Assembly: GCA_964527715.1 (NCBI GenBank)
Contig: CAZGOD010000002.1
Span: 1,736-65,735 of the forward strand
Direction of reading: 5' to 3'
DNA length: 64,000 nt
From: an uncultured Thermoplasmatales archaeon
GTDB taxonomy: Archaea; Thermoplasmatota; E2; DHVEG-1
Part shown: positions 3,798 to 45,974 of the stretch, piece by piece
How positions within the stretch are numbered: the first letter of the stretch is position 1
How the letters are laid out: every line of letters starts with the position of its first letter
The notes under the pieces: model-generated
Told to the model about the DNA's origin: nothing
Databases searched by the model: none
Seen by the model: only the letters and a program-made list of their open reading frames with translations
Made by a program: the position numbers and the translations under genes

Positions 3798-3800
3798 AAA

Positions 3801-4526: not shown

Positions 4527-4544
4527 AAAAAATTGTGATATAAA

Positions 4545-5555
4545 ATGGAATTCTCTATTATCATAGCTGTTAGAAATGAAATAAACTACATAAAAAAATG
4601 TATAAAATCAGTGTTCAACCAGGATTATAAAGGCAAATATGAAGTCATAGTAGTAGACGGAATGAGCGACGATGGAACATACGAAATCCTGCAGGATTTA
4701 AAGAAAAAACATAACTTCCAACTACTTAGAAACCCTACATTAAATGCAGCTGCTGGGAGAAACACAGGCATCAAAGAATCCAAAGGAAAACATATCGCTT
4801 TCATAGATGGGGATGCCGTAGCAGCTAAAAACTGGCTTAGCCAAATCAAAACCTCCTTTGAAAAATATAAAGTAGCAGGTGTAGGAGGACCAGATCATTT
4901 ACCAGAGGACAGCAGTGAAAAATCTCGCATGATCGGATATGTTATGACATCACCCCTCACACGAGGCGGTAAATTAAACCCATCCACCCAACATAGCCTA
5001 ATGGAAAAAGAAAAATTTGTTGACCATATACCAACCTGTAACCTATGCCTAAAAAGAGAAGTTTTTGATAAAATTGGCTTATTCGATGAAAAATTTGTAA
5101 AAGGACAAGACCTAGAATTAAACTACAGAGTTAGAAAAGCAGGATATAAAATACTCTATTCACCCAAAATAGAGGTTGTACATTACAGAAAACAACACAT
5201 AAGAGACTTTGCTAGACAAATATTTAAATGGGCAAAAGCAAAAATCGCTATAATAAAAAAACATGGAATGCACGGATTAATAAGCCATATCTATCTATGG
5301 CCCGCTTATTTTTCACTAGCTTTCTCCATATCTCTAATGCTATTCTATTTACTCAATATAATTTACATTTTCATAATTTTGTTGTTTTTAGGAGTTATAT
5401 TCTATAGCTCAGTTTTAATGTTCGAAGCAGCACAACTGTCAAAGAAATATAAAAATAAGAAACTATTTTTGTACGCAGCAGCTCTATTTCCCATAGTACA
5501 TATCTCATACTCATATGGCGTATTCTCTGCATTAATTAAAAGAAAAATATGGTGA
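4545..5555 (+). CDS. Glycosyltransferase family 2 with C-terminal TM helices
   Basis: VVDGMSDDGT, AFIDGD (DxD), GQDLELNYR, hydrophobic C-terminus. Confidence 0.9.
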   Translation: MEFSIIIAVRNEINYIKKCIKSVFNQDYKGKYEVIVVDGMSDDGTYEILQDLKKKHNFQLLRNPTLNAAAGRNTGIKESKGKHIAFIDGDAVAAKNWLSQIKTSFEKYKVAGVGGPDHLPEDSSEKSRMIGYVMTSPLTRGGKLNPSTQHSLMEKEKFVDHIPTCNLCLKREVFDKIGLFDEKFVKGQDLELNYRVRKAGYKILYSPKIEVVHYRKQHIRDFARQIFKWAKAKIAIIKKHGMHGLISHIYLWPAYFSLAFSISLMLFYLLNIIYIFIILLFLGVIFYSSVLMFEAAQLSKKYKNKKLFLYAAALFPIVHISYSYGVFSALIKRKIW

Positions 5556-5559
5556 AACC

Positions 5560-6678
5560 ATGAAAATACTAATGATTCTCTCAAACTCATTCATGGTTGA
5601 CCCCCGAGTCCATAAAGAAGCAAAAACCCTAGTTGAAAACGGCCATGAAATAACAGTCATAGTCTGGGATAGACGAAGAGAATACAAAACCGAAGACACA
5701 GTAGACAACATCAGATTAATCAGAATTCATAACAAAGGCTTATTAAAAATATTACAAAAAGACCTATTTCGCAATCCACTATGGTGGCGGAAAGCATACA
5801 AAAAAGGATTAGAAATCTACAAAAAAGATTTCAAATTTGACATAGTTCATTGCCACGACCTAGATACACTACAATCAGGAGTATGGCTCAAAGAAAAACT
5901 TGGAACTAAACTAGTATACGACGCCCATGAACTATGGGGACATCTCATAGAAAAAAACGTCCCAAAATTTGTCGTAAAAAAAGCATTCTCCATGGAAAAA
6001 AAACTAGTAAAAAAAACAGACCATATCATCACCGTCAGCACCCCATTCATGGAATACTTCAAAACAATAACTAATAAACCTATAACTCTCGTAATGAACT
6101 GCAAAGATCTAATCTATCCAAAATATGAACCACCAAAAGAAAAAAAATTCACTCTTTTATACATAGGCGGAATGAAAAAACAAAGGTTTTTCCCAGAGAT
6201 AATTGACATAATGGGAAAACTACAAAACGTACAACTAATTCTCGCAGGTAAAACCGAGGACCTATATCACGAAATGAAAAACTACAGCAAGAAATATAAC
6301 AATATAAAGTTCCTTGGTACAATACCAACAGAAGAAATCCTACCGCTAACCAGATCCGCACATGCAAATTTCATCATAGTAAATCCCACGAGTAAACACT
6401 ACCAAAAAACATTATTCAACAAACAATTTGAAGCAATGGTATGCGGAAGACCAATAATCGCAACAAAGGGAACATTTGCTGGAGAAATGACTGAAAAATT
6501 AAAATGCGGAATAAACGTGGAATACAATGAAGAATCAGTCAAAAAAACTATAATACAACTCAGAGATAACCCCTCGCTATCTGAAGAACTTGGAAAAAAC
6601 GCTTTAAAAGCGGCGAAAGATAAATACAATTGGGAGAAAGAAAAGAAAAAATTATTGACTGTTTATAAGGAGATATAA
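5560..6678 (+). CDS. Glycosyltransferase family 4
   Basis: DPRVHKEA, HCHDLDTL, YDAHE, NKQFEAMVCGRPII. Confidence 0.9.
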   Translation: MKILMILSNSFMVDPRVHKEAKTLVENGHEITVIVWDRRREYKTEDTVDNIRLIRIHNKGLLKILQKDLFRNPLWWRKAYKKGLEIYKKDFKFDIVHCHDLDTLQSGVWLKEKLGTKLVYDAHELWGHLIEKNVPKFVVKKAFSMEKKLVKKTDHIITVSTPFMEYFKTITNKPITLVMNCKDLIYPKYEPPKEKKFTLLYIGGMKKQRFFPEIIDIMGKLQNVQLILAGKTEDLYHEMKNYSKKYNNIKFLGTIPTEEILPLTRSAHANFIIVNPTSKHYQKTLFNKQFEAMVCGRPIIATKGTFAGEMTEKLKCGINVEYNEESVKKTIIQLRDNPSLSEELGKNALKAAKDKYNWEKEKKKLLTVYKEI

Positions 6679-6679
6679 C

Positions 6680-7948
6680 ATGAAAATAGTCATATTCGGA
6701 CTTGGAAGAATCGGTCTACCAATCGCTCTAGTATGCGCAGATAGCGGATATAAAGTCGTTGGAATAGATATAAACAAAAAACTTATAGACTCCCTTAAAA
6801 ACAAAGAGTTACCTTTCTATGAACCAGGCATGAAGGAGTTACTCCTCAAACACATTAATAAAAACTTTTTTCCAAAACACCAAGAAAACAACATTGAACC
6901 AGATTTAAAAGAGGCTGAATACATTGTACTCGCTGTTGGAACCAGTTTCGCCAAATACCCAGATAAACCCAAACTAGACACACTCTACTCAATTATCAAT
7001 CAAATCATAAAAATAAATTTACAAGGAAAAACCATCATCCTAAGAGTCACACTACCAATAGGAACATCCGACGATATCAAAAAACTAATCGAGAAAAAAA
7101 CAGGCCTAAAAGAAGGAAAAGATTTCTGGTTCGCATTTGTGCCAGAACGTATAATGGAAGGAAAAGCCATACAAGAAGAAAAAAAACTACCAAAAATAAT
7201 AGGCACCTACAACAACAAAGCATACGAAAAAGTAAACAGTTTTTTCAAAAAAATCGGTGGCAACATAGTAAAAGTATCAAACCCTCGAACAGCTGAATTT
7301 ATTAAACTAATCGACAACTCATGGAGAAATACACGTTTCGCATTTGCTAACGAACTAGCATTCCTAGCCGAAAAAAACAATATAAACATCATAGAAGCAA
7401 TAGAATCAGCTAACGAAGGCTATGAACGAAATGAAATACCAATACCCGGACCAGTTAGCGGATACTGCCTAGGAAAAGACCCATATCTACTAGAACTCGC
7501 TTTTGAAAAAATCTCCAAAAAACGAGGATTCAACTCAGTATGGTACTACGGACGACGAGCAAATGACTGGCTAAATAAAAAAATAATAGAAGACGTAAAA
7601 GGAAAAAACATCCTAGTAGCAGGTCTAGCATTCAAACAAGACATAGATGATTTCCGATATAGCCACAGCATAGAAATAGTCCAAAAACTAGCTGAAAAAG
7701 GATACAACGTCTACGTCCACGACCCCTATCTCGACAACAACTATTACACCACTTTACCCACAGAAATAGAAAAAAAGGTTACAAAAACCAAAAATATCAG
7801 CGAAATCATCAAAAAAATAGACACATTAATTATCGCGACTAGACACAAAGAATACAAAAACCTCAATATAAAAGAACTAAACCCATCAGCAAAAATAATG
7901 GATCTTTGGAACATATACAGAAAAACAGCAAAAACAATAAAAAAATAA
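6680..7948 (+). CDS. Nucleotide-sugar 6-dehydrogenase (UDP-HexNAc dehydrogenase, WecC/WbpA-like)
   Basis: GLGRIG, PERIMEG, KLIDNSWR, GPVSGYCLGKDP (catalytic Cys), GLAFKQDIDDFRYS. Confidence 0.85.
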   Translation: MKIVIFGLGRIGLPIALVCADSGYKVVGIDINKKLIDSLKNKELPFYEPGMKELLLKHINKNFFPKHQENNIEPDLKEAEYIVLAVGTSFAKYPDKPKLDTLYSIINQIIKINLQGKTIILRVTLPIGTSDDIKKLIEKKTGLKEGKDFWFAFVPERIMEGKAIQEEKKLPKIIGTYNNKAYEKVNSFFKKIGGNIVKVSNPRTAEFIKLIDNSWRNTRFAFANELAFLAEKNNINIIEAIESANEGYERNEIPIPGPVSGYCLGKDPYLLELAFEKISKKRGFNSVWYYGRRANDWLNKKIIEDVKGKNILVAGLAFKQDIDDFRYSHSIEIVQKLAEKGYNVYVHDPYLDNNYYTTLPTEIEKKVTKTKNISEIIKKIDTLIIATRHKEYKNLNIKELNPSAKIMDLWNIYRKTAKTIKK

Positions 7949-7979
7949 GAAAAAAACTCATTCTTCATGGAGAACTAGA

Positions 7980-8828
7980 ATGAATATAAAAAATATAACA
8001 GAAGAGGAATGGAAATTTTTAATAATTTTAGATGCCTGCAGATACGACTATTTTAAAGAAAACTACAAAACATACTTCAAAAAAGGTACACTACACAAGA
8101 CTCAAAGCCGGGCAATAGAGACAATAGAATGGGCTCAAAAAAATTTCACAAAATACTATGATGACATAATTTACATTTCAACAACGCCTTTTATAAACTC
8201 CAAAAAAGAAATCAAAAAAAGAGGCATCATGTTCAACGGAAAAAAACATTTCCACAAAGTCATAGACTTATGGGACTGGGGATGGGATGATGAAATCAAA
8301 ACCGTAAGACCTGAAAAAGTAAACGAAACTTTTGAAAAAGAATCGAAAAAATGCCCTGAAAAAAAATTCATAATACACTACATGCAGCCTCATGCACCAT
8401 ACATCTCACTTGAAAAAACATACAAAAAATATGAAGAAGAAAACAAGTTTAAAAAAAGAAAAAAGAAAACTCCCAAAAGAGACAACACGGCCAAAAAAAA
8501 ACTATTATTTCTTACGATGAAAACCTTTGGGACCGAAACAATATGGCGTCTTAACAAAATATTCGGTTTCAGAGAAGTACTACCACCGCACATGGAGATG
8601 GCATGGAGAATTGTTGGAAAAAAAGGATTAAAAAAAGCATACCTTGACAACCTGCACATCGTTCTCAAAAATGCTCAAGCTCTCTGTGAAAAACTCGATG
8701 GAAAAACAATTATAACATCGGACCATGGAGAACTATTGGGGGAAAAAGGGCTATATGGTCATGGACCACCACTGCCAAGACATGAAAAACTATTAACAGT
8801 CCCCTGGTTTATTTTAAATAAAGATTGA
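7980..8828 (+). CDS. Alkaline-phosphatase-superfamily (sulfatase-like) protein
   Basis: ILDACRYD, HYMQPHAPY, TSDHGELLGE.G.YGH metal-ligand motifs; no C/S-x-P-x-R. Confidence 0.75.
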   Translation: MNIKNITEEEWKFLIILDACRYDYFKENYKTYFKKGTLHKTQSRAIETIEWAQKNFTKYYDDIIYISTTPFINSKKEIKKRGIMFNGKKHFHKVIDLWDWGWDDEIKTVRPEKVNETFEKESKKCPEKKFIIHYMQPHAPYISLEKTYKKYEEENKFKKRKKKTPKRDNTAKKKLLFLTMKTFGTETIWRLNKIFGFREVLPPHMEMAWRIVGKKGLKKAYLDNLHIVLKNAQALCEKLDGKTIITSDHGELLGEKGLYGHGPPLPRHEKLLTVPWFILNKD

Positions 8829-8868
8829 AAAATAATAAAAATCAAAACAATAAGTTTGAGGAAACAAG

Positions 8869-10236
8869 ATGAGCAATCAAAATCTTGAAGAGAAAACATA
8901 TGTATTTCTTGTTACTGTTGATGATCTCCGCGCTGACCATTTAGGATATATGGGATACAAAAAAAACATATCACCAAATATTGACTCTTTTGCCAAAAAA
9001 AACATAGTTTATACCAATGCCCTCTCTAATGCACCACAGACAACAATTTCGTTTCCATCAATACTTTATGGAGTTTATGCTACTGATTTTTTTGATAAAA
9101 AAAACTATCTTAAAAAAAGAAGCATTGCAACAGTTTTAAAAGAAAATGGTTACAAAACCCTGGCTTTTAACTCTAATCCTCATTTTAAAATGTGGGGCTT
9201 TAGTAAAGGATTCGATTATTTTGAAGATTTCTTATCAGAAACCAGAGGTGAAAGAGATAAGACCGTCGAGAAAGCTAAAAAAAAATTAGTTAAAAAAATC
9301 GGTAAAAAAAACATACTGATAAAAGGTTTATCAAAAATCTTGACTCGTTTATCAGGGCACATCGCAAAACCTTATGCAGATGCAGAGTTAATGAATAAAA
9401 AATTCTTTGAAGAAATTGACAAAAAAGACAACCAAAAAATATTCTGCTGGATGCATTACATGGATCTACATTATCCTTTTTTGCCACCTACAAAAGATAT
9501 AGAAATCAAAATGGCAAAAGAAGAAATCCTAAGGTTGAACAGATTGCAAAGAAGAGCATTGCATTTCAAAGAAAAATTACCAGATGATGATGTTAAAAAA
9601 ATAATAGCTCTCTATGATGCTGAAATAAGATATCTAGATTCACACTTCAACTTTTTTATTGATGGTCTTAAAAAAAGAGGTATTTATGATAAATCCATCA
9701 TAATTTTTACATCAGACCATGGAGAATTATTCGGTGAACACAATAGATTCGGCCATGATCAAGATGTTCTGTATCAAAAACAGTTACATGTTCCCTTAAT
9801 CATTAAAACATATGGAAATAATAAGAAAGTTTTTGACAAACCTGCATCACTTGTAAATATCCCATCTACATTCCTGGAGATTTTAAAAATAAAAAATTCT
9901 TATTTTGACACAGAATCAATCTTCAAAGAAAATGAATATGTTATAAGTGAAGGAATCATCTGGAGCTCTTTTGAAAAACAACAAACAATCAAAAAAAATG
10001 AGATAATGGTATCATGCCAAAAAGAAAATTGGAAATTGATAATTGATAATATACATAACAGGAAAGAACTTTATAATCTAGCTGATGACCCTGATGAATC
10101 ATCAAATCTTTATCCGTCAATGAAAGACGTTGCAGGTAAGTTAAGTAAAATAATTGAAAGTCATTTAAATAAATCAGAGGAAAAAGATTTGATTACAAAC
10201 AAAATTAAATTACTTAGAAAAGCAGGCAAAATATAG
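8869..10236 (+). CDS. Sulfatase-like hydrolase/transferase
   Basis: TVDDLRADH, HYMDLHYPF, YDAEIRYLD, TSDHGELFGEH..FGH, ELYNLADDPDE; nucleophile region NAPQTTISFPS. Confidence 0.85.
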   Translation: MSNQNLEEKTYVFLVTVDDLRADHLGYMGYKKNISPNIDSFAKKNIVYTNALSNAPQTTISFPSILYGVYATDFFDKKNYLKKRSIATVLKENGYKTLAFNSNPHFKMWGFSKGFDYFEDFLSETRGERDKTVEKAKKKLVKKIGKKNILIKGLSKILTRLSGHIAKPYADAELMNKKFFEEIDKKDNQKIFCWMHYMDLHYPFLPPTKDIEIKMAKEEILRLNRLQRRALHFKEKLPDDDVKKIIALYDAEIRYLDSHFNFFIDGLKKRGIYDKSIIIFTSDHGELFGEHNRFGHDQDVLYQKQLHVPLIIKTYGNNKKVFDKPASLVNIPSTFLEILKIKNSYFDTESIFKENEYVISEGIIWSSFEKQQTIKKNEIMVSCQKENWKLIIDNIHNRKELYNLADDPDESSNLYPSMKDVAGKLSKIIESHLNKSEEKDLITNKIKLLRKAGKI

Positions 10237-10266
10237 AAAAAGCATATCTTTGAGAGGAAAAAAATA

Positions 10267-11199
10267 ATGGAAAAAAAACAAATAGAAGAAAGATTAGGGA
10301 AGTACCACATAGAAATGAAATATAATACAAATAGGCCTACAATTAGTACTTATAAACTTGATAAAAAAGGAGTTTTGATTTATAAAATACCTTACACAAA
10401 TTCTTTTGATTATTATCCCGTGAGTATCACTTTATATGCTCTAGGAAATTTCGAGATGCATCTAGACACAAATAATGATAAATATATAGATAATTTCCTT
10501 AAACAGGTGGATTGGCTAGTAAATAACATTTCCATCAAAGATGATTTTGGCGTATGGGAACATAAATTTGTAATTCCTTATTATAATTTCAACAGAGTTC
10601 CATGGGTTCATGGTATGGCTCAAGGTTTAGCCATATCTTCCTTACTTCGGGCATATCAACTCACTAGCAACAAAGTTTATTTAGAAACTGCTGAGAAAGC
10701 ATATGGTGCATTTCAGAAGGATATTAATGACGGAGGAGTAAGATACATCGACAAAGAAGGAAATGCCTGGCTTGAAGAATATGCCATACAACCCCCACCT
10801 CATATTTTAAATGGGTTTATTTTTGCTTTGTTTGGAGTCTATGATTTTTATAGAGTTACAAAAAATAATAACGCATTAGCGCTATGGAACAAGGGGATAA
10901 ATACATTAGAAAAGAACTTGTTCAGATATAACACCAAATATTGGTCACTGTATAATTTATTGCAAAAATATCCAGCTACTAAAAAATATCACAATTTGCA
11001 TATAAAACAATTAAATGTTTTGTATGAAATGACAAGTAGAAAAATTTTCAAAAATTATGCTCTAAAATGGAATAGTTATGGAGAGAGGAAATTAAATCTT
11101 ATCCGAGGGAAAACAAGAAGAGGAATGATTCATCTAAGAAGACATGGACTGATAGATTGTATAAAACAATACAGGTTGAAGGAAAAGTGGATGAAATGA
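10267..11199 (+). CDS. D-glucuronyl C5-epimerase family protein (C-terminal catalytic domain)
   Basis: WVHGMAQGLAISSLLRAYQLT, WLEEY, HILNGFIFALFG.YD, WSLY, YHNLHI.QL match the C5-epimerase catalytic domain; gene lies within a glycan cluster. Confidence 0.8.
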   Translation: MEKKQIEERLGKYHIEMKYNTNRPTISTYKLDKKGVLIYKIPYTNSFDYYPVSITLYALGNFEMHLDTNNDKYIDNFLKQVDWLVNNISIKDDFGVWEHKFVIPYYNFNRVPWVHGMAQGLAISSLLRAYQLTSNKVYLETAEKAYGAFQKDINDGGVRYIDKEGNAWLEEYAIQPPPHILNGFIFALFGVYDFYRVTKNNNALALWNKGINTLEKNLFRYNTKYWSLYNLLQKYPATKKYHNLHIKQLNVLYEMTSRKIFKNYALKWNSYGERKLNLIRGKTRRGMIHLRRHGLIDCIKQYRLKEKWMK

Positions 11200-12164
11200 A
11201 AATCTGCTTTTTTGGCAACATATCATATACTTTTATCAGGAGAGATTTTGAAATCTTGAAAAAATATTTTGATGTTGATTTGGTAAATTCACCAAAGAAA
11301 AAAACTGGATGGTTAAAATATCCTTCTGTCGTTGCAAAAAAAGTAAAGAATTGTGATGTAATTTTCTGTTGGTTTGCAGGATGGCATTCAGCTTTTGCTA
11401 TTCATTACGCAAAGAAATATAAAAAAAAATCAATCGTAGTTGCAGGAGGGTACGACGCTGCGTATGTTCCTGAAATAAATTATGGAGCTTTTACCAACTT
11501 AAAAGAAAAAATAGCTGCAAGATATGTGCTAAAAAACGCTGATTTAGTTTTAGCAGTCTCCAAATTTACCAAGAACGAGATTTTGAAAAAAATAAAACCC
11601 ATAAAGATAAAACTCGTTTATAACAGCGTAGATGTTGAAAAATTCAAACCATATGGAAAAAAGGAAGATATTATTATTACAATTGGAGAAGAAATAAAAT
11701 TGAAAGGTTTAGAAACTTTTGCAAAAGCATCTAACAAGTTACTGGGATATAAATTCGTGATAATCGGAAAAAAAGAAAAAACTGCTCTTTTCAAATTAAA
11801 AAAAGAAAATCCAGATATTATACTCACGGGCAAATTATCCCATAGCGACGTTCTAAAATGGCATCAGAAAGCAAAGATTTATTGTCAACTATCCTACATA
11901 GAATCTTTTGGAATAGGAGTCGCAGAAGCGATGGCATGCGAGTGCATTCCTATTGTAACAAATAGAGGCGGATTACCAGAAGTGGTCGGGGGTACTGGTT
12001 TTTACGTTCCCTATGGAGATGAAAAAGCAACTGCTGAAGCAATAAAAAAAGCATTAACTAATTCAGATGGATTAGGGAAAAAAGCAAGAACTAGAATCGA
12101 AGAAAAATTTTCACTAAAAGAACGAGAAAAAGTTCTGAAAAATTTAATAGAAAAAATTGCATGA
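11196..12164 (+). CDS. Glycosyltransferase family 4
   Basis: ESFGIGVAEAMACECIPIVTNRGGLPEVVG; start ATG 11196 overlaps the upstream TGA (ATGA coupling). Confidence 0.9.
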   Translation: MKICFFGNISYTFIRRDFEILKKYFDVDLVNSPKKKTGWLKYPSVVAKKVKNCDVIFCWFAGWHSAFAIHYAKKYKKKSIVVAGGYDAAYVPEINYGAFTNLKEKIAARYVLKNADLVLAVSKFTKNEILKKIKPIKIKLVYNSVDVEKFKPYGKKEDIIITIGEEIKLKGLETFAKASNKLLGYKFVIIGKKEKTALFKLKKENPDIILTGKLSHSDVLKWHQKAKIYCQLSYIESFGIGVAEAMACECIPIVTNRGGLPEVVGGTGFYVPYGDEKATAEAIKKALTNSDGLGKKARTRIEEKFSLKEREKVLKNLIEKIA

Positions 12165-24345: not shown

Positions 24346-25023
24346 ATGAATTCTGGATATATAAAAAAACAAAATTTAAATTTTCTTATAGACAATACAA
24401 ATAATATCTTAAAATGGGCCTTCAAAAAGTATCCTGGAAAAATATTTGGTACAACAGCTTTTGGTGCAAATGGGATAGTTCTCTTAGATCTAGTTAATAA
24501 AATTGACAAAAAAGTTCCTTTTTATTTTATCAACACTGGCTATCATTTCCGTGAAACTCTAGATGTCTTAGAACACTATAAAAAAAATGGTTTTAATATA
24601 ATTGGAGTTACTTCAAATGTTGATGATTCAAATCATTTACTTGTAGATATGGGCCCAGATGTTTGCTGTAGTATAAATAAGGTTGAACCAATGCGTAAAA
24701 TTCTTCAGGAAAATAAGGGTAATCTGTGGATTGCTGCAGTTAGCCGGGGTCAATCGTCAACCAGAAGGAATTTTAGATTCCTTGAACCACAGGATAATAA
24801 TATTATTAAAATTTGTCCGATGTTGGTTTGGAAAGAAGATGAAATATGGAGTTACATAAACGAAAATAAGCTAGTTTATAACAAACTTTATGATAAAGGT
24901 TATAAAAGTATCGGCTGTGAGCCTTGTACAACAAAAGTCGAAGATGGGGAAGATAGTCGCGCGGGGAGATGGAGAGGTTCGAATAAAGAAGAATGCGGAT
25001 TACAGACAGAATTTGGTAAATAA
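24346..25023 (+). CDS. cysH: APS/PAPS reductase (4Fe-4S APS-reductase type)
   Basis: TAFG, NTGYHFRET, CC..NKVEP, GYKSIGCEPCT, RAGRW, ECGL. Confidence 0.85.
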   Translation: MNSGYIKKQNLNFLIDNTNNILKWAFKKYPGKIFGTTAFGANGIVLLDLVNKIDKKVPFYFINTGYHFRETLDVLEHYKKNGFNIIGVTSNVDDSNHLLVDMGPDVCCSINKVEPMRKILQENKGNLWIAAVSRGQSSTRRNFRFLEPQDNNIIKICPMLVWKEDEIWSYINENKLVYNKLYDKGYKSIGCEPCTTKVEDGEDSRAGRWRGSNKEECGLQTEFGK

Positions 25024-37547: not shown

Positions 37548-38405
37548 CTAATTTATGAACAATATGGAGTAATCACATTTTTCTGCTATTTTTTGTTTAA
37601 AACGTTTAACTGGTAGACCTAGTATGCCTTTTTTTTTCTTTTCACGTCCGATTATTATTAAATCTGCTTTGAGTTTTTTTGCTGCTTTGAAAATTTCTTT
37701 TTCCGAGCTTCCTTTTACCAAGTTAATGTTTATCTCTTTTTCCTTAAGCTCTTTTACAAAGTTTTGGCCATTTTTTATGAGGGCTTTCGATGTTTTAGTT
37801 CCGGATCGTTTACCGGCGGTATCAACTTGTACACTGTCCTCTACGTCTACGATATATATCATGTGTAAGTTGCATCCTAATGACTTAGCTAGTTTGATAC
37901 TGAAATCTGGTACTTTTTGATTTGGTGCTAGGTTTGAACAAACAGCAAGTATGTTTTTAATTTCATTGTTTGCTTCTATCCAGATTGGTATATTGACTTC
38001 GTCAAATAGTCGATAGTTGAGTATGCATTCTTTTTCAAAGCCCATTACAATTAGATCGTATTCTTTTAATCTTAATTCTCTTTTTACGACGACGCTAAAT
38101 TCTCCTTCAGCTATTTTCTCTTCAAAATTGATTTCTTTGTCTTTAAAAAAGAATTTTGCGTCATTAAAAATAATGTTATATGCAGCAAGTTTTTGTTTAC
38201 TAATTATTTCTTTTTTTGTTTCTGCTATTTCCTGGGACGTCAGATAGATATTTGATAATTTATCTGTTTGATTGAGGGTTTTTTCTTCAATTATGTAAAC
38301 TAGAGTTAAATTACTTTTAAATTTTTCAGCGAGAAAAGCACTTCTTTTTAGTATGTTTTTTGAGTAAAATTCAGAGGATACAGGAATTAAAATATTTTTA
38401 AACAC
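37548..38405 (-). CDS. Universal stress protein (tandem USP domains)
   Basis: FKNILIPV, DLIVMG, ADLIIIGR, CDYSILFI; GTG start. Confidence 0.75.
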   Translation of the reverse strand: MFKNILIPVSSEFYSKNILKRSAFLAEKFKSNLTLVYIIEEKTLNQTDKLSNIYLTSQEIAETKKEIISKQKLAAYNIIFNDAKFFFKDKEINFEEKIAEGEFSVVVKRELRLKEYDLIVMGFEKECILNYRLFDEVNIPIWIEANNEIKNILAVCSNLAPNQKVPDFSIKLAKSLGCNLHMIYIVDVEDSVQVDTAGKRSGTKTSKALIKNGQNFVKELKEKEININLVKGSSEKEIFKAAKKLKADLIIIGREKKKKGILGLPVKRFKQKIAEKCDYSILFIN

Positions 38406-38453
38406 GTGGATTTGTTCCCCCTGCAGAAATATTTCGACTTGTATTTATATTTT

Positions 38454-39881
38454 TCATAGGTGTAAAACTCCTATCCAGTAGACAACTGCGATGACAAAAA
38501 TTAGGATTATACATAAAACATTAGCTAAAACACCTGCTTTTAGTAGATCCCGTGTTGAAAAATAACCTGAAGAATATGTGATAGCATTTCCTGGTGTCGA
38601 TATTACGAATACAAATGCTAATCCACCAGTTAGTGCAATTGTCATTGATGCTAATAGAGGGCTGATATTCGTTATTGTTGTTGCAATTGAGAGACCAATT
38701 GGCAACAGTATTGCTACTGCTGCTATGTTTGACATAATATTTGTTAAAATTACTGTAAAGAGTATCATGGCTAATATTACGATTAGCGGATTATTTCCTG
38801 CTATGTTAAAGATTCCATCAGCTATCCATCCTCCTGCACCCGTTGTTTGCATGCCAATGCCAAGTGTGATTGCTCCCCCATATAGTATTATTAGTCCCCA
38901 GGGTACACGGTTTTCTACATCTTTCCATGAGATGGATCTGGTTAAAAATAGAAGTATGCTTCCAAGTATTGAGATGACTGCTAGTCCATAGTATGTTGTT
39001 GATGAAAATAGGACCCATAGGAGGATTGTTAAAATGAGGATGAACAGGACAATTAGCTCATCTTTACTTATTTTTCCGGCTTTAACTACTTGTTGACTGA
39101 TTTCTCTTTTTGCAGCGGATATATCTCTAATTTCTATTGGGAAAGAGAACTGTAAAATGAACCATACCAGGGGTAATGCAATGATTACTACTGGTATCGA
39201 ATAGGTCATCCATTCAAAAAATGTAACGTTTATATCTGCTTGTTGTAGGATGTCAACTGTGTAAATGTTACGGGCGCCACCTATGAGTGTCCCAAGACTT
39301 CCAATTGAGCAGCCGTAGGCGACTGCGAGCATGCTAACTTTTCCAAAGTTACTCTGCTTTGGTACAATTTCCATAGCGATTAGTATTGAGACTATGATAG
39401 GTAGGAATAGTGCAGCGACACCGTGCTCCGGCATTACAAAGGAGAGAGATGCACATGAAAGCATTATTCCAAAGGTGAAAAATCGAGGGTTGTTTTCGAA
39501 GAGACTTAAGAATTTTAGGGCGATTCGGCGATGAAGGCCATGTTTTTCAATGGCACCTGCGATGATAAACGCGCCTATTAGAAAGAAAACAGCGTTACTT
39601 CCAAATGAAGAGAAAACCTGCGTTGGTGTTCTAATATGTAGGAGCGGCTGCATGACCATTATTAGTAAACCTGTGACTGGTAGTGGTATTGGCTCTGTGA
39701 TCCATAATATTGCTGCCATTAGCAGTATTCCTATCATTAGTTGCCCATTATGTGTTAAGCCGTCTGCTGTAGGTATAAAATAAAATAGTGCGATGACAAG
39801 AAACGCTACTAAAATAAAAACAATGTCTCTCAGAGATAAGAATGAACTTTTGGTTTTAAGGAAGTTTTTATTGTCTATCAT
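38454..39881 (-). CDS. SLC13/DASS family sodium:sulfate (or dicarboxylate) symporter
   Basis: WITEPIPLPVT, EKHGLHRRIAL, SIGSLGTLIGGARN, TNIMSNIAA, STPGNAI. Confidence 0.88.
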   Translation of the reverse strand: MIDNKNFLKTKSSFLSLRDIVFILVAFLVIALFYFIPTADGLTHNGQLMIGILLMAAILWITEPIPLPVTGLLIMVMQPLLHIRTPTQVFSSFGSNAVFFLIGAFIIAGAIEKHGLHRRIALKFLSLFENNPRFFTFGIMLSCASLSFVMPEHGVAALFLPIIVSILIAMEIVPKQSNFGKVSMLAVAYGCSIGSLGTLIGGARNIYTVDILQQADINVTFFEWMTYSIPVVIIALPLVWFILQFSFPIEIRDISAAKREISQQVVKAGKISKDELIVLFILILTILLWVLFSSTTYYGLAVISILGSILLFLTRSISWKDVENRVPWGLIILYGGAITLGIGMQTTGAGGWIADGIFNIAGNNPLIVILAMILFTVILTNIMSNIAAVAILLPIGLSIATTITNISPLLASMTIALTGGLAFVFVISTPGNAITYSSGYFSTRDLLKAGVLANVLCIILIFVIAVVYWIGVLHL

Positions 39882-40453
39882 TTTCTTCTTTGTCTGTATA
39901 ATTCTTGGTCTACTACATTTATCATCTTTTTCATATCAATGTCAGGTAGTTTGAGGAATTCACAGATTTTTTTTATGTTGGTTTTAGGGTTTAATAAGGT
40001 GTCGTTATAGTTTATTAGTAGAACTTTGGTGTCTTCTCTGTTTTGTATTTTGTTTTTTATTATATTGTTCAGTTTGATGAAGGTTTTTTTGGTTTCTTCG
40101 CGGTTTTTATCTTTTATCCCCGTCATTTTTTCCATGGAGTCTAATATTTCTTCGATGTTTCTTTCTGAGTATATTATTTTGTAGTTTCCATGGGGTAGAA
40201 ATTTTAGGCCGTATGCTGTTATTTTTATGAATTTTCCTTTGTGTTTTTCTAATGGAAATGTTCCGTCCATTAGTTTGTTGATGATTTTTCCGCCTTCGAG
40301 TTCGTAGTAACCTTTTGGGTTGTTTTCATCTGATGTTCTTGACCTGTCGAAAGCAGCTGGTATCTCGCCCGCGTTTAATATTTGCATTAGCATAGATGTG
40401 CCAGACCGTTCGAGTCCAGAGATTATGTAGTTTGTGTTGATATCTAGTACCAT
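39878..40453 (-). CDS. PAPS-dependent sulfotransferase domain protein
   Basis: 5'-PSB loop SGLERSGTSML; 3'-PB-like IYSERNIEEILDS; stop overlaps the SLC13 start. Confidence 0.8.
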   Translation of the reverse strand: MVLDINTNYIISGLERSGTSMLMQILNAGEIPAAFDRSRTSDENNPKGYYELEGGKIINKLMDGTFPLEKHKGKFIKITAYGLKFLPHGNYKIIYSERNIEEILDSMEKMTGIKDKNREETKKTFIKLNNIIKNKIQNREDTKVLLINYNDTLLNPKTNIKKICEFLKLPDIDMKKMINVVDQELYRQRRK

Positions 40454-40458
40454 AGAGT

Positions 40459-41070
40459 CTACCTTTGTATGAGGCCTAGTTCTCCTAGTTTGTTTAGTAC
40501 TTTTTCAGCGCTTTCTTCAATGTTTTCCTTATCTGTGTCTATGAGTATTTCAGGGTTTTCTGGTTCTTCATAGGGGGCATTTATTCCTGTGAAGTCTTTT
40601 ATTATGCCTTCTCTTGCTTTTTTGTAGAGGCCTTTTGGGTCTCTTTTTTCACATGTTTCTAATGATGCCTTGGTGTAGATTTCAAGGAATCTGCCTTTTC
40701 CTGCTAGTTCTCTGCAAAAGTTTCGGTATTTCTTATATGGTGAGATGAAAGCAGTTATTGCGATGACACCTGCGTCTGCAAATAGGTTTGCTACTTCTGA
40801 TATTCTTCGGATGTTTTCGTTTCTATCTTCTGGTGAGAACCCGAGGTCTTTGTTTAGTCCGTGTCTTATGTTATCTCCGTCGAGTACGTATGTTAGGTGC
40901 CCCATTGTGTGTAGTTTGTAGGCTACTTCATTTGCGACAGTTGACTTTCCGCTGCCTGATAGGCCTGTGAACCAGATTACTACTCCTGTTTGTTTTAGGA
41001 GTTTTTCTCGGTCTTCTTTACTTACTTTATGTTCATGCCATGTGACATTTGTTGCTTTTTGTTCTTTCAT
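40459..41070 (-). CDS. cysC: Adenylyl-sulfate kinase
   Basis: WFTGLSGSGKST, LDGDNIRHGL..DLGFS, AFISPY, RDPKGLYKKAR, FTGINAPYE. Confidence 0.97.
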   Translation of the reverse strand: MKEQKATNVTWHEHKVSKEDREKLLKQTGVVIWFTGLSGSGKSTVANEVAYKLHTMGHLTYVLDGDNIRHGLNKDLGFSPEDRNENIRRISEVANLFADAGVIAITAFISPYKKYRNFCRELAGKGRFLEIYTKASLETCEKRDPKGLYKKAREGIIKDFTGINAPYEEPENPEILIDTDKENIEESAEKVLNKLGELGLIQR

Positions 41071-41079
41071 ATTTTATTT

Positions 41080-42069
41080 TCACCTTCCTTCTGGGTTTAT
41101 TTTTAAAAAATTTAATATTTCATTTGAGAATGATTCTGTTTTGTTTTTTGGGACTATTGCCCCTAAGACTTCTGTTTTTCCTCCACATTTGAACCCGAGT
41201 GTTTTTCCTCTTTGTATCATGGGTTCTATGTTTTTGTTGCTCCTCACATAGATTTGGTCTTTGTCATTGAAGAATCCTGTATTGATTACTATTGTGTTTT
41301 TTCCGCTTCCCCATGCGACCTTACGTGTTATCGTTGATATTATGTTGTATGGTGTGTCTATTTTTTTGTAGATTATGCCGTTGAGCTCGTCTTCTGGTTT
41401 CTCCAGTTGTTTTGTGATTTCTTCGTTTAATTTTGTGTAGTTCTGGTTCCATGTTGGGTTGTTTAGTATATCACTTGGTGAGTCGTAGTTTAGAAGAGCA
41501 TGTGGTGCTTTTTCCACAGATGTTTTATCGCCTAGTTTGTAGTTAGAATCTAAGAGATAAGCTATTTTTAGTAGGTCGTCGAAGATTAGGTTGTTTTCGT
41601 TGCAGAAATCAGTTATGATTTTGTAGAATTCTGTGTTGTTTTTGATTTTTTGTTCGTGATCCCCAATTATTCCAAGTAATGCGTATAGGTTTATTGGGTT
41701 TCCTAGGTGGCTGTTTACAATCCAGCTAGCTGATGGGTATTTATCTGGGTTTTCTCCTTTTATAATAGGGTTGTTGTGGTATACTTGTTTGATTTCTTTT
41801 CCTAGGTGGTGGTCGAATATTATTATTTTGGCGTTTTTTGCTAGTCGTAGTATGTTGTCTTCTGGTAGTGACATGTCTGCGATGATTATGAAATCGTATT
41901 TTGAGTATTCATCTAGTTCTTTTTCTGTTAGATAATAGTTGCCTAGTTCTGGTGTTTTATTATCTATGTTTTTGTCCGAGAGGTGTCTTAGTAGTAGTGC
42001 TGCTGAGCATATTCCATCGGTGTCCCAGTGATGGATTAGTAGTCCTTTTCCGTTTAGTTCCTGTAGCAT
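41080..42069 (-). CDS. DHH-family phosphoesterase
   Basis: HHWDTDG, ADMS, IFDHH, GIIGD, C-terminal CGG; real start ATG 42069 behind GAGGAG, not 42696. Confidence 0.85.
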   Translation of the reverse strand: MLQELNGKGLLIHHWDTDGICSAALLLRHLSDKNIDNKTPELGNYYLTEKELDEYSKYDFIIIADMSLPEDNILRLAKNAKIIIFDHHLGKEIKQVYHNNPIIKGENPDKYPSASWIVNSHLGNPINLYALLGIIGDHEQKIKNNTEFYKIITDFCNENNLIFDDLLKIAYLLDSNYKLGDKTSVEKAPHALLNYDSPSDILNNPTWNQNYTKLNEEITKQLEKPEDELNGIIYKKIDTPYNIISTITRKVAWGSGKNTIVINTGFFNDKDQIYVRSNKNIEPMIQRGKTLGFKCGGKTEVLGAIVPKNKTESFSNEILNFLKINPEGR

Positions 42070-42095
42070 GTTTTTTTGTTCTCCTCTTGTTTTTT

Positions 42096-43220
42096 TTATT
42101 CTACGAATGGTTTTTTGTATTTGAGTATGGTTTCTGCTACTTCTTTTCGCATCATGTCTTCTGGTGGTATTTCTCCGTTTCTGAGTAGTTCTCTGATTTT
42201 TTTGCCGCTGAAGTTGATGTGGTATTTTTGGTCGTGCGGGCAGATTTTGTCGTTTACGACGCTTCCGCATTTTGTGCAGCGTGAGAATGATCTGAAAAAT
42301 ATGGGTATTATTCCTAGGTCTGGGAATTCTGAGAATATTTCGTGTGCATCGTATGGCCCGTAGTAGTTGCCTACTCCTGCGTGGTCTCTTCCTACGATGA
42401 AGTGTGTGCAGCCGAAGTTTTTTCTCATGATGGCGTGGTGTATGGCTTCTCTTGGTCCTGCGTATTTCATGGATGTTCGTAGTATGGACATTACTGATCG
42501 TTCTTTTAGGTAGTAGTATTTCATTAGGGTCTCGTAGGATGAGAGTATTACTTCGTCTTTGAAGTCTCCTGTTTTTTTCTTTCCGATGATTGGGTTTATG
42601 AATATTCCGTCTACGAAGGTGAGTGCTGTTTTTTGTACGTATTCGTGGCCTATGTGTGGTGGGTTTCTTGTTTGGAAGGCGACTATTTCTCTCCATCCTT
42701 TTTCTTTGAATAGTAGTCTTGTTTCTTTTGGTGTGAGGTTGTATTCGTCAAATTGTCTAGGTTTGTTGTTGATGAGGTTTATTTTTCCGCCTAGTAGGTG
42801 GTTTTTCATGTTTTGTATGTTTGCTACTCCCGGGTGGTTTATGTCTTGTGTTTTGTATACTGATTGTGCTAGTGTTTTTTTATTGTAGTTGTAGAGTTCT
42901 TCTATGTCAAGTAGGGCATGTAGTCCGATTTCTTTGTTTGTTAGTAGTATTGTGTCTCCTTCTTTTATGTTGTTTTTTTCGAAGTCTAGTAGTATAGGTA
43001 TTGTCCATGGTGTGTCGTTTTCTAGTCTTTTTTGTGCTACTACGTTTTCCAGGTTGTTTTTTGTTAGGAAGCCTTCTAGCGGCGAGAATACTCCTGTTGA
43101 GATATTTATTATGTCTTCTGCGAGGTTTGTGTTTATTTCGATTTGTGGGTATTCTTTTAGGTCTGTTGGTTGTTTTTTGATTTGTCTTGTTATTAGTTTT
43201 CCTCCGTGTGGTATTGGCAT
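42096..43220 (-). CDS. sat: Sulfate adenylyltransferase (homo-oligomeric Sat)
   Basis: GVFSPLEGF, AFQTRNPPHIGHE, MKYAGPREAIHHA..RKNFGCTHFIVGRDHAG, SGKKIRE. Confidence 0.97.
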   Translation of the reverse strand: MPIPHGGKLITRQIKKQPTDLKEYPQIEINTNLAEDIINISTGVFSPLEGFLTKNNLENVVAQKRLENDTPWTIPILLDFEKNNIKEGDTILLTNKEIGLHALLDIEELYNYNKKTLAQSVYKTQDINHPGVANIQNMKNHLLGGKINLINNKPRQFDEYNLTPKETRLLFKEKGWREIVAFQTRNPPHIGHEYVQKTALTFVDGIFINPIIGKKKTGDFKDEVILSSYETLMKYYYLKERSVMSILRTSMKYAGPREAIHHAIMRKNFGCTHFIVGRDHAGVGNYYGPYDAHEIFSEFPDLGIIPIFFRSFSRCTKCGSVVNDKICPHDQKYHINFSGKKIRELLRNGEIPPEDMMRKEVAETILKYKKPFVE

Positions 43221-43233
43221 TTTGTTTCCACCT

Positions 43234-43467
43234 CTAGTCTAGGTATCCTAGTGCTCGTAGTCTTTCTTTGACTTTTTCTTCGTCTTCTTTGCTGAATGCT
43301 TCTTCTGTTTCTTCTTCTGTTCCTGCTATTATTTCTCTTAGTACGTATGTTGCGTAGGAGGATAGGGATGTGAATCCTGTTCCTTTTATGCGTTTTTTTA
43401 TTTTTTCTGCTAGTGGTGTTGGTATTGATATTGTTGTGAATTTTTTTTCATCTTTTTTTTCTTCCAT
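43234..43467 (-). CDS. CopG/ribbon-helix-helix transcriptional regulator with C-terminal RLRALGYLD tail
   Basis: beta-strand TTISIP followed by two helices (LAEKIK..., LSSYATYVLREII); SD AGGTGAT upstream. Confidence 0.8.
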   Translation of the reverse strand: MEEKKDEKKFTTISIPTPLAEKIKKRIKGTGFTSLSSYATYVLREIIAGTEEETEEAFSKEDEEKVKERLRALGYLD

Positions 43468-43476
43468 TTTATCACC

Positions 43477-43526
43477 TAATTATATTTAACTATATTTCAT
43501 TATATTTAGTTACATGTAATTATGAT
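43477..43526. repeat. Five imperfect 10-bp tandem repeats (consensus TAATTATATT)
   Basis: TAATTATATT, TAACTATATT, TCATTATATT, TAGTTACATG, TAATTATGAT are contiguous between the RHH SD and a TATA-like element at about 43526-43533. Confidence 0.6.
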
Positions 43527-43662
43527 ATATAAATTTTATGAAAAAAACAGCTTTGCACAATAACTCTAACTTTACACAGCAATTATTTATGTGTTGGTGA
43601 TAAAAACAATAAAAAAAGAAATAACATAGACACCCATTACACCACTGCTACAAGGTGAAAAA

Positions 43663-45074: not shown

Positions 45075-45974
45075 TTAAAAACCAAAAAAAACCAAAAGCA
45101 CTGGTACTAAAAACGCAAGAAGACCAACAAAAATAGCAACTAAAGTAAACCTCCTATAAATCCTAACATGAGGCTTTTTCTTAAAAATCAACTGAAAAGA
45201 CGTACTAAGCAACATAGTATCAGTCAAAAAAATAAGAGCTAAATAAAAATAATTTAAATAATAAAGCTCAAATCTCTCCATAAAAAAAGGCAAAAAACTC
45301 AAACAAATAGCAAACAAATAAAACACTGCAGCCAATATGTTTGACCCGCGAACACCAACATAAAAAGGAAAAGATTTCACACCCCTCGCTCTGTCACCCT
45401 CAAAATCCATAACATCTTTCATAATCTCCCGGCCAACGCCAGTAAGAAACGCTATAAAAGCAATAATATAAATCACAAGAGGAACATCAACAAACAAAGA
45501 ACCGTCCTGAACCATAGCAACACCACCAAAAACAAAAGGAATAGCCATTGCATAGGCTATGTAAAAATTCCCAAGAATCTTTATCTTTTTAAGACTAACA
45601 TCATAGAATACCCCTAGAAGACCAGTTATAAGAGCGATGATAAAACAAGTCAAATTAACGAAAAATGAACATATTACGCCGAGTGGGAACAATATTACAA
45701 AGATATACAACGCAGTTTCTCTGGATAAATCACCCCTAACAAGGGGCCTATCCATTCTCCTGTTTTTCTTATCTATTTCAAGATCATAATAATCATTAAG
45801 AGCAAACGTACTTGCCTCAAGGAAAAGAACAGTAAAAAAAGTAAGAATAAACTTGTCAAAACTTGGAAGACTCTCACCTCCCAGTGCTACTAGTGAACCT
45901 ATTAACACTGCTATGGCAATCATTATACCATGCTCTAATCGCATGAGCTCCCAGATTGCTCTGAGTTTTTTCAT
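45075..45974 (-). CDS. Digeranylgeranylglyceryl phosphate synthase (UbiA family)
   Basis: NDYYDLEIDK.N..DRPL.RG and REIMKD.MDFEGD aspartate-rich motifs; multi-TM. Confidence 0.85.
   Translation of the reverse strand: MKKLRAIWELMRLEHGIMIAIAVLIGSLVALGGESLPSFDKFILTFFTVLFLEASTFALNDYYDLEIDKKNRRMDRPLVRGDLSRETALYIFVILFPLGVICSFFVNLTCFIIALITGLLGVFYDVSLKKIKILGNFYIAYAMAIPFVFGGVAMVQDGSLFVDVPLVIYIIAFIAFLTGVGREIMKDVMDFEGDRARGVKSFPFYVGVRGSNILAAVFYLFAICLSFLPFFMERFELYYLNYFYLALIFLTDTMLLSTSFQLIFKKKPHVRIYRRFTLVAIFVGLLAFLVPVLLVFFGF

Follow-up and report, generated by a model that had tools for sequence, protein, structure and literature searches.

For what purpose would an archaeon without a recognizable sulfite reductase activate sulfate? 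The question is raised by a locus in a 64,000-nucleotide stretch of DNA (the window) from an uncultured Thermoplasmatales archaeon of the class E2 (contig CAZGOD010000002.1, assembly GCA_964527715.1). Here, genes for ATP sulfurylase (Sat) and adenosine 5'-phosphosulfate (APS) kinase (CysC) stand together with genes for a DHH-type phosphatase, a small sulfotransferase (ST), a DASS/SLC13-family transporter, a tandem universal stress protein (USP), and a small protein resembling ribbon-helix-helix (RHH) regulators. Comparable genes have been interpreted as assimilatory: Zhou et al. 2019 (PMC6461988) read a truncated gene set in Thermoprofundales as sulfate assimilation, and Orellana et al. 2019 (PMC6864105) read cysDN-cysC in MGIIb in the same way, finding no known sulfate transporter there. 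Jespersen and Wagner 2023 (PMC10322725) asked instead what role ATP sulfurylase (ATPS), APS kinase (APSK), and the phosphatase PAPP could have in archaea unable to grow on sulfate, and drew a hypothetical “route 1c” in which these three enzymes work with an unknown non-canonical sulfotransferase. We consider it likely that the whole locus is one transcription unit forming a self-sufficient cytoplasmic sulfation pathway. Judging from its genes, the operon matches “route 1c” and supplies a candidate for its sulfotransferase in this lineage.

The seven genes are co-oriented on the minus strand and span positions 43467-37548 (Table 1). Listed in gene order from the small RHH-like gene to the USP gene, the gaps are 13, 26, 9, 5, -4, and 48 bp, the negative value being the 4 bp by which the DASS start overlaps the ST stop. 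A preliminary description of this DNA had given the co-orientation and all of these gaps, which are exact in the open reading frame (ORF) coordinates; its placement of a glmU-glmS-glmU group 93 bp beyond the last gene is likewise confirmed. Six of its gene names are backed by Pfam and NCBIfam profiles. The exception is the first gene, whose designation as a regulator matches no profile and derives from the annotation of homologues and a sequence pattern. For the DHH gene, the mechanical ORF reaches back to 42696, inside sat; we chose the ATG at 42069 as the start because homologues and the alignment to the characterized enzyme MtPAPP begin at the same methionine. The source genome (1.54 Mb, 39 contigs) is about 91% complete. 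DNA sequencing runs containing the locus are salt-marsh and marine-sediment metagenomes, and the relatives are metagenome-assembled genomes (MAGs) from sediments and vents.

Table 1. Positions of the operon, its candidate control region, and other features of the window
Feature	Position	Strand	Length	Matches or content
Candidate promoter/operator region	43477..43533	-		TATA-like TTTATATA, 10-bp repeats, Shine-Dalgarno
Small RHH-like protein	43467-43234	-	77 aa	no Pfam or NCBIfam match
Sat	43220-42096	-	374 aa	ATP-sulfurylase + PUA_2
DHH protein, MtPAPP-type PAP phosphatase by homology	42069-41080	-	329 aa	DHH (Pfam 1e-09)
CysC, APS kinase	41070-40459	-	203 aa	APS_kinase
Sulfotransferase (ST)	40453-39878	-	191 aa	Sulfotransfer_1/_3
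DASS/SLC13-family transporter	39881-38454	-	475 aa	Na_sulph_symp / TIGR00785
Tandem USP	38405-37548	-	285 aa	two Usp domains, PF00582 1.4e-20
glmU-like	37454-36270	-		TIGR03992 359 bits, Arch_glmU
glmS	36268-34454	-		glmS 783 bits
glmU	34436-33231	-		TIGR03992 529 bits, Arch_glmU
Fe-S-type CysH	24346-25023	+		TIGR00434 202 bits vs cut-off 165; NF002537 200 vs 154
Glycan island	2532-12164	+		two UDP-sugar dehydrogenases, glycosyltransferases, sulfatase-fold genes, C5-epimerase homologue
Two sulfatase-fold genes	7980-8828, 8869-10236	+		Sulfatase family
D-glucuronyl C5-epimerase homologue	10267-11199	+		PF06662

The enzymes predicted to make the sulfate donor retain their diagnostic features. 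Sat matches PF01747 (5e-89), PF14306 (9e-41), and NF003166 (504 bits against a cut-off of 387), and in its sequence we read the catalytic motifs FQTRNPPHIGH and VGRDHAGVG together with an N-terminal PUA-like domain; by these features it is a homo-oligomeric ATP sulfurylase, converting sulfate and ATP to APS and pyrophosphate. CysC (PF01583, 2e-69; TIGR00455, 278 bits against a cut-off of 139) keeps the P-loop GLSGSGKST as well as LDGDNIRHGLN and AFISPY, and by the same kind of evidence is an APS kinase, which uses a second ATP to form 3'-phosphoadenosine 5'-phosphosulfate (PAPS). The DHH protein has a single match in the PDB, the phosphatase MtPAPP of Methanothermococcus thermolithotrophicus (8A8K, E=9.6e-42), with its residues 10-315 aligned to chain residues 22-325 so that both the DHH and DHHA1 domains are covered. 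MtPAPP is a fast enzyme specific for 3'-phosphoadenosine 5'-phosphate (PAP), is encoded together with ATPS and APSK, and binds Mn2+ through His6, Asp8, Asp10, Asp57, His76/His77 of the DHH motif, and Asp127 (PMC10322725). All of these metal ligands are kept in the alignment: IHHWDTDG is identical, the Asp of IADMS aligns with ILDLN, FDHHLG with IDHHLQ, and GIIGD with GAVGD. The DHH protein is a clear homologue of this characterized enzyme and would, on that basis, be an MtPAPP-type phosphatase hydrolyzing PAP to AMP and phosphate.

The ST is the only Sulfotransfer_1/_3 match in the whole genome (PF00685, 2e-10; PF13469, 9e-09). An alignment of 50 homologues, reaching down to 32% identity, showed that the 5'-phosphosulfate loop G13-L-E-R16-S-G18-T19-S20 is invariant at G13, R16, G18, T19, and S20, and that the 3'-phosphate pair R98 and S106 is invariant as well; the region around this pair aligns with the matching region of the CurM ST and SULT1B1. 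N45, G48, E51, and K77 likewise do not vary. No histidine is invariant among the homologues, and E51 and K77 are candidates for catalytic residues. Sequence searches against the PDB gave marginal matches only (E>=0.04), so a comparison of folds was needed. The AlphaFold2 model (pLDDT 94, pTM 0.90) was compared with the PDB by Foldseek. Sulfotransferases take the first seven places and most of the top 50, headed by Teg12, Teg14, StaL, TPST1/2, the CurM and OLS ST domains, and SULTs; the others are a few P-loop kinases (guanylate kinase, sugar kinase). The TMq values of the leading matches are moderate, 0.5 to 0.6, because the 191-aa protein is a minimal version of the fold. The modeled fold and the PAPS-binding motifs in its sequence are those of a compact cytoplasmic PAPS-type sulfotransferase. 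The proposal of the preliminary description that these genes activate sulfate, transfer it, and recycle the by-product in the service of sulfation is upheld, as far as sequences can tell, by the motifs of Sat, CysC, and ST and by the homology of the DHH protein to MtPAPP.

We then asked whether sulfate could instead be reduced. The siroheme-binding NIR_SIR domain, which covers the assimilatory sulfite reductases CysI/Sir and Fsr as well as DsrAB, was found neither in this genome nor anywhere in the class (0/197 genomes), and the same search was positive in 11 of 14 control genomes. In this genome the AprA model (TIGR02061) scores 23 bits at best, with the cut-off at 642; no separate search was made for AprB. 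Since the class has no detectable sulfite reductase, the pathway would end in sulfate esters rather than sulfide, and the absence of NIR_SIR across the class together with that of AprA in this genome makes sulfation, not reduction, the supported function. These results also bear on an alternative named in the preliminary description, that aprAB or dsr genes elsewhere might account for sat, which they do not bear out. The window does contain one gene of reductive sulfur metabolism, an Fe-S-type cysH located 13 kb from the operon. Its product, by type a thioredoxin-dependent APS/PAPS reductase, shows CC...CxxC, the cluster ligands typical of Fe-S APS reductases, and carries EECGLQ, with an ECGL motif, at its C-terminus. 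The gene is part of a nonulosonic-acid cluster, where it is flanked by genes for an APH-family kinase and a DegT aminotransferase, and full-length homologues (31 to 42% identity) occur in about 8 of the 197 genomes. CysH is an accessory gene of a variable sugar island, outside the conserved pathway; the sulfite that it would form may go into a sulfonated sugar or acid made by this strain. Two related observations concern other genomes. In genus g40, which lacks ST but has CysC, proteins of about 671 aa contain a match to the C-terminal half of CysH, and in an archaeal MAG (L080:6622-7887) a gene that joins a PAPS_reduct domain to a hexapeptide acyltransferase immediately precedes that of an ST homologue; both may be alternative users of PAPS or APS.

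If the locus encodes a pathway, its composition should be maintained by selection. ST is found in 97 of the 197 genomes (46/77 genera, 47/76 high-quality genomes), and CysC is present in 94 of the 97 ST-positive ones. We fetched 20 kb around ST in 20 relatives and found the order RHH-Sat-PAPP-CysC-ST, or the variant Sat-PAPP-ST-CysC, in 17 of the 20 loci, which belong to four families; DASS-USP follows in most of those whose contigs reach far enough. Because this order recurs, the operon is not a chance juxtaposition, and the operon conservation that the preliminary description had proposed to check across archaea is borne out within this class. The same gene set, with ST moved to the front, is present in “Thermoplasmatales archaeon ex4484_6” (L103), which belongs to a second Thermoplasmatota lineage, and Sat-CysC-ST adjacency extends to several bacterial phyla (L130, L131, L133, L143). 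In two genera of one family, sat is replaced in place by cysD and cysN (L038:6152-8331, L039:6256-8435), and the accompanying CysC is of a more divergent type (~47-49% identical). CysD-CysN is a heterodimeric ATP sulfurylase unrelated to Sat. Its substitution at the same position indicates that selection acts on ATP-sulfurylase activity there, and such a replacement strongly supports selection of the operon as a pathway.

How sulfate would reach this pathway is less clear from the transporter itself. The DASS protein is a full-length member of its family (PF00939, 5e-65; TIGR00785, 292 bits against a cut-off of 198.6), and its closest matches in the PDB are VcINDY (1e-52) and human NaS1 (6e-41). 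Both of these carriers, the latter being SLC13A1, keep the Ser-Asn-Thr motif of the first hairpin, which in VcINDY forms a Na+ and substrate site. In the operon-linked subfamily the motif is Pro-Glu/Ala-His: the protein studied here has P-E-H, within FVMPEHGVAAL (SFVMPEHGVAAL, compared with SMWISNTATAAM in VcINDY and SMWLSNTSTAAM in NaS1). The motif of the second hairpin is S-N-I here and SN[ITV] in the operon-linked orthologues, and the TPxNA motif is kept. Operon-linked orthologues from four families and from L103 share the MP[EA]HG variant, and its histidine is invariant in 15 of the 15 orthologues checked, including the 43%-identical protein of L103. Thus, the assignment to the DASS/SLC13 family made in the preliminary description stands, and the import of sulfate that it had read from this family is a reasonable inference from operon context, with the first Ser-Asn-Thr motif missing from the sequence. 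The USP gene directly follows the DASS gene in every examined locus that has a DASS gene, and the tandem USP is plausibly a nucleotide-sensing partner of the transporter. There is a parallel in Halomonas elongata, where the USP TeaD, encoded directly after the ectoine transporter TeaABC, regulates that transporter, presumably by matching transport to the ATP state. The position of the USP gene right behind the transporter gene is the shared feature; here the USP is a tandem protein and its putative partner is a DASS carrier.

The first gene of the operon encodes a 77-aa protein whose homologues are annotated as “Arc/MetJ-type RHH” by JGI and as “CopG family” by NCBI. We read in its sequence a strand-helix-helix pattern, an acidic linker, and a conserved C-terminal peptide (FSKEDEEKVKERLRALGYLD), and the protein is 62 to 90% identical across the four families. 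Its best PDB profile match, a dynein light chain (E=0.002), is regarded as spurious. Upstream of the gene, the TATA-like element (43533-43526) and the Shine-Dalgarno sequence AGGTGA (43477-43472) flank 4.7 copies of a 10-bp unit with the consensus TAATTATATT (Tandem Repeats Finder score 59). Of 16 loci, 12-13 have TAATTAC(A) upstream of the orthologous first gene, among them loci of GC-rich genomes, against which the A/T block stands out; the background frequency of TAATTAC in this genome is 0.06 per kb. The repeats and the TAATTAC sequence fit an RHH-type repressor acting on phased operator repeats and constitute a candidate operator. A scan for sigma-70 promoters and intrinsic terminators returned counts equal to the shuffled expectation, with models that are not informative for an archaeon.

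The C-terminal peptide of the RHH-like protein (the tail) is an unexpected element of the locus. It comprises about 15 residues of the pattern E-E-K-[VI]-K-E-R-L-[RK]-x-L-G-Y-[LI]-[DE], ending here in KERLRALGYLD, and is better conserved (SKEDEEKVKERLRALGYLD) than the putative DNA-binding part, being nearly identical in Aminicenantes bacteria. Among the 10,061 ORFs of its own genome, the first gene is the only one with this ending. A tail-bearing ORF lies within 5 kb of ST in 18/19 loci of the class, 31/80 diverse genomic loci, and 2/30 IMG/VR loci. Bare adjacent pairs of an RHH-tail gene and an ST gene, separated by -34 to +91 nt, occur in other archaea and in two bacterial phyla, namely in Aminicenantes and in a polysaccharide cluster of Thermodesulfobacteriota. 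In eight ST homologues the tail is fused to the C-terminus of the enzyme itself, and the contigs of two of these look viral; when one fused ST was modeled with AlphaFold, its tail came out as a helix of pLDDT 85-90 behind a low-confidence linker, which suggests that it packs on the enzyme. The tyrosine is present in 67 tails, and the few matches to a relaxed pattern without it are CysC C-termini or the ends of unrelated ORFs.

This layout recalls the RHH antitoxins of type II toxin-antitoxin systems (ParD, RelB, and CcdA types), which combine a DNA-binding N-terminus and a flexible acidic linker with a C-terminal peptide that binds the partner, and whose genes directly precede the partner gene, with operator repeats over the promoter. 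The RHH-like protein would share the antitoxin layout; however, three metabolic genes separate the pair in the full operon, and the tail is also found on sulfatase- and NPP-fold enzymes and fused to ST, as is not known from any toxin-antitoxin system. By this analogy the tail would be a docking peptide for ST, functionally like the toxin-binding tail of an antitoxin. We raise as no more than a tentative possibility, somewhat doubtful even to us, that it is a portable docking tag for the compact ST family, one that links operon transcription to the state of the enzyme, brings sulfation complexes together, and acts in cis in the fusions.

Several further occurrences of the tail and of ST homologues were recorded. 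Beside ST homologues in bacterial MAGs, Sulfatase (PF00884) and type I phosphodiesterase/nucleotide pyrophosphatase (NPP; PF01663) proteins of 450-840 aa end in ...ERL[KR]xLGY[LI] (L089-L091, L106, L120, L122, L136, L137, L148-L150); on such proteins the tail may assemble multi-enzyme sulfation complexes. Large IMG/VR viral contigs (L153-L158, 45-155 kb) carry ST homologues of 39-53% identity, with an 81-aa RHH-tail protein 424 bp downstream of ST on L155 and a 136-aa tail-bearing protein on L154. The small contigs with tail-fused STs (L054-L058) encode glutaredoxin and HSP20-like proteins among many short ORFs. Finally, the last 16 residues of CysC (AEKVLNKLGELGLIQR, 40459-40510) resemble the tail of the RHH-like protein (EEKVKERLRALGYLD), as they do in the orthologues of L037 and L073. 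This resemblance may be due to chance, or the tail may mimic the terminal helix of a kinase-like fold. Because it resembles the C-terminal helix of APS kinase, the tail may complete the truncated kinase-like fold of ST in trans.

The surroundings of the operon offer hints at what the pathway may sulfate. Our best guess is that the acceptor is a sugar, a nucleotide-sugar, or a lipid-linked envelope glycan. The glmU-like, glmS, and glmU genes, which would supply UDP-N-acetylglucosamine, adjoin the operon only in loci of family f1 (gaps 57-880 bp), where the trio is kept throughout, and are linked to it by position only. The 93-bp gap here contains T-runs and an A/T-rich TATA-like stretch (TTTAAAATATTTTT), which make a separate glmU promoter likely. 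The two GlmU paralogues differ, the distal one being an orthodox archaeal GlmU and the operon-proximal one divergent (Table 1). Other clues to a glycan acceptor are a GlmU-like nucleotidyltransferase gene after a viral ST (L156) and the bacterial RHH-tail and ST pair that lies inside a polysaccharide cluster. The neighbors of isolated ST homologues gave no common acceptor clue: they include a BNR protein, an aldo-keto reductase, the PAPS_reduct-hexapeptide fusion, a Bac_transf sugar transferase, and UbiA. The UbiA-family prenyltransferase gene directly follows an ST homologue in a Bathyarchaeia MAG (L139:7710-9545). A UbiA gene at 45075-45974 in the window is syntenic in family f1, and weak UbiA-like matches occur near the operon in f8, in each case within 2-3 kb of it. 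These neighbors could hint at a lipid acceptor or be coincidental.

The 30 kb upstream of the operon in the window form a glycan island, which likewise speaks for a sugar or glycan acceptor. Two of its genes encode sulfatase-fold proteins, neither of which carries the tail, and the 455-aa sulfatase-like protein has homologues in 18 of the 197 genomes; 14 of these 18 are ST-positive, a modest enrichment over the 97/197 overall. In Halobacterium salinarum, the sulfatase-fold proteins Agl30 and Agl31 sulfate iduronic and glucuronic acid of the N-glycan, in a study that does not mention PAPS (PMC11980604), and iduronic acid is formed by Agl32, which is cellobiose-2-epimerase-like and not of family PF06662 (PMC12624080). 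The likeness to the window lies in its sulfatase-fold genes, its C5-epimerase homologue, and its UDP-sugar dehydrogenases, ~28 kb from the operon; the difference is that Agl30 and Agl31 are sulfatase-fold proteins, whereas the ST of the operon has the classical PAPS-type fold.

Several of our observations speak against a self-contained sulfation operon directed at an envelope glycan, or against parts of that proposal. None of the RNA sequencing runs searched for the locus contains it. The DASS protein lacks the first Ser-Asn-Thr motif, so its substrate and coupling ion are, as far as its sequence tells, uncertain, and neither canonical Na+ coupling nor the canonical substrate can be assumed. 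CysC is more widespread than ST (139/197 against 97/197 genomes), and PAPS must therefore have other uses in some relatives. The presence of a genuine CysH in the same window means that part of the flux through APS and PAPS could go to sulfite. The conservation of ST equals that of Sat (49-74% identity within the class); a conserved metabolite would account for this at least as well as a variable surface glycan. Neither Pfam (E<=10) nor a PDB profile search found an RHH domain in the 77-aa protein, and the evidence suggesting that the tail binds ST consists of gene linkage, fusions, and one pLDDT profile.

With these points in mind we weighed four other explanations. One sees in the genes the first half of an assimilatory sulfate-reduction pathway, with Sat, CysC, and CysH feeding sulfite to an unrecognized reductase for cysteine and ST an incidental neighbor. 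It agrees with how Zhou et al. (PMC6461988) and Orellana et al. (PMC6864105) read Sat/CysDN and CysC, with the bona fide Fe-S CysH of the window, and with the assimilatory role of the homologous ATPS, APSK, and PAPP in M. thermolithotrophicus (PMC10322725). It has to contend with the lack of NIR_SIR in every one of the class genomes and of any AprA-like PAPS reductase in this genome; moreover, CysH is sporadic and resides in a variable sugar island instead of the operon, whereas ST is a fixed operon member, translationally coupled to the transporter gene. We find this explanation scarcely credible, the least probable of the four. Alternatively, PAPS could be made mainly for consumers outside the operon, such as the sulfatase-fold proteins and the C5-epimerase homologue of the window, leaving ST a minor or regulatory role. 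The two Sulfatase-family genes (7980-10236), the PF06662 homologue, the dehydrogenases, and the glycosyltransferases are indeed assembled nearby, Agl30 and Agl31 have the sulfatase fold in a paper silent on PAPS (PMC11980604), sulfatase-like homologues lean toward ST-positive genomes, and tail-bearing sulfatase- and NPP-fold proteins adjoin ST homologues in bacteria. The sulfatase-like genes are nevertheless rare and the operon is common, so they cannot be its main purpose; the two in the window lack the tail, and ST keeps every catalytic motif. We judge this proposal improbable, if somewhat less so than assimilation.

Two explanations remain. The RHH-tail protein and ST might be a toxin-antitoxin-like or protein-modifying pair, in which ST sulfates the tail tyrosine or another protein and Sat, CysC, and PAPP only supply the donor. 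The bare pairs have the antitoxin-then-enzyme gene architecture with its short gaps, the best structural neighbors of ST are phenol, peptide, and tyrosine sulfotransferases (Teg12/14, StaL, TPST), the tail tyrosine is invariant, and viral contigs carry ST homologues, one of them with an RHH-tail gene. The tail tyrosine is flanked as L-G-Y-L, however, and lacks the acidic residue at position -1 that is usual for tyrosine sulfation, and a tail fused to ST itself suits a docking or structural role better than that of a substrate. A seven-gene core-genome operon with a transporter would also be excessive for modifying one regulator, and the operon is vertically conserved, not island-like. This pair hypothesis strikes us as very improbable, only just ahead of the assimilatory one. 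A more serious contender is that DASS does not import sulfate and carries a di- or tricarboxylate, or exports or exchanges the sulfated product. Its nearest solved relative is the dicarboxylate carrier VcINDY, and it has P-E-H in place of a motif that even the sulfate carrier NaS1 retains. On the other hand, its start overlaps the stop codon of ST, the gene stays with the operon in two classes without ever losing the MP[EA]HG variant, a sulfate-consuming operon needs an uptake route, and DASS/SulP carriers have been proposed for sulfate in M. thermolithotrophicus too (Jespersen and Wagner, PMC10322725). We therefore hold a different cargo to be rather unlikely, although clearly less so than the other three alternatives.

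According to the sulfation pathway that we favor, sulfate would enter the cell, probably via DASS, whose activity the tandem USP probably tunes to the adenine-nucleotide state. Sat would make APS and CysC would make PAPS, as their family membership and intact motifs predict, and the 191-aa ST would pass the sulfuryl group from PAPS to the acceptor. The inhibitory by-product PAP would be removed by the MtPAPP-type DHH phosphatase, by homology to the characterized enzyme. The RHH-like protein probably represses the operon by binding the 10-bp repeats, which are in phase with the DNA helix and lie between the start codon and the TATA element, and its invariant tail probably binds ST, as an antitoxin tail binds its toxin. 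Through such binding, operon transcription would follow the state of the ST enzyme.

Systems that pair dedicated sulfate activation with a PAPS-dependent sulfotransferase, and that do not serve cysteine synthesis, are known in bacteria: nodPQ/nodH of Sinorhizobium, raxPQ/raxST of Xanthomonas, and cysDNC with stf in Mycobacterium. They use CysDN-CysC fusions, and their CysQ-type PAP phosphatase is encoded elsewhere. We know of no such bacterial system in which a single operon combines transporter, activation, transfer, PAP removal, and regulator, and of none that is archaeal. The ST of the present operon also belongs to a family that is much smaller (191 aa) than the STs of these systems. In M. 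thermolithotrophicus the same three enzymes, a stand-alone Sat-type ATPS, APSK, and the unusual DHH-fold PAPP, are encoded together (PMC10322725); there, PAPS passes to an AprAB-like PAPS reductase and then Fsr for assimilation, neither of which is in the present genome, whereas the present operon adds the sulfotransferase, DASS, USP, and the RHH-like gene. Thus, PAPS with sulfotransferases is already known from bacteria and an archaeal PAPP has been known since 2023, and in the literature searched we found no description of a conserved archaeal operon uniting all of these functions.

These findings change how sulfur genes in this group are to be read. The presence of Sat or CysDN with CysC in abundant uncultured Thermoplasmatota, hitherto taken as “partial sulfate assimilation”, is better read as sulfation, and Sat in such archaea risks being misread as a sign of sulfur respiration; these archaea would still depend on reduced sulfur. 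The operon is a concrete, clonable candidate for the non-canonical sulfotransferase route of Jespersen and Wagner, and because all of its parts lie in one 6-kb unit, heterologous reconstitution and the search for a sulfated product are straightforward. The shared tail points to an unrecognized physical linkage of sulfation enzymes and a regulator across archaea, bacteria, and viruses. If it does act as a docking tag, the tail would constitute a code of protein interactions not described before in prokaryotic sulfation, and docking of this kind could explain how the sulfatase-fold proteins Agl30 and Agl31 obtain activated sulfate.

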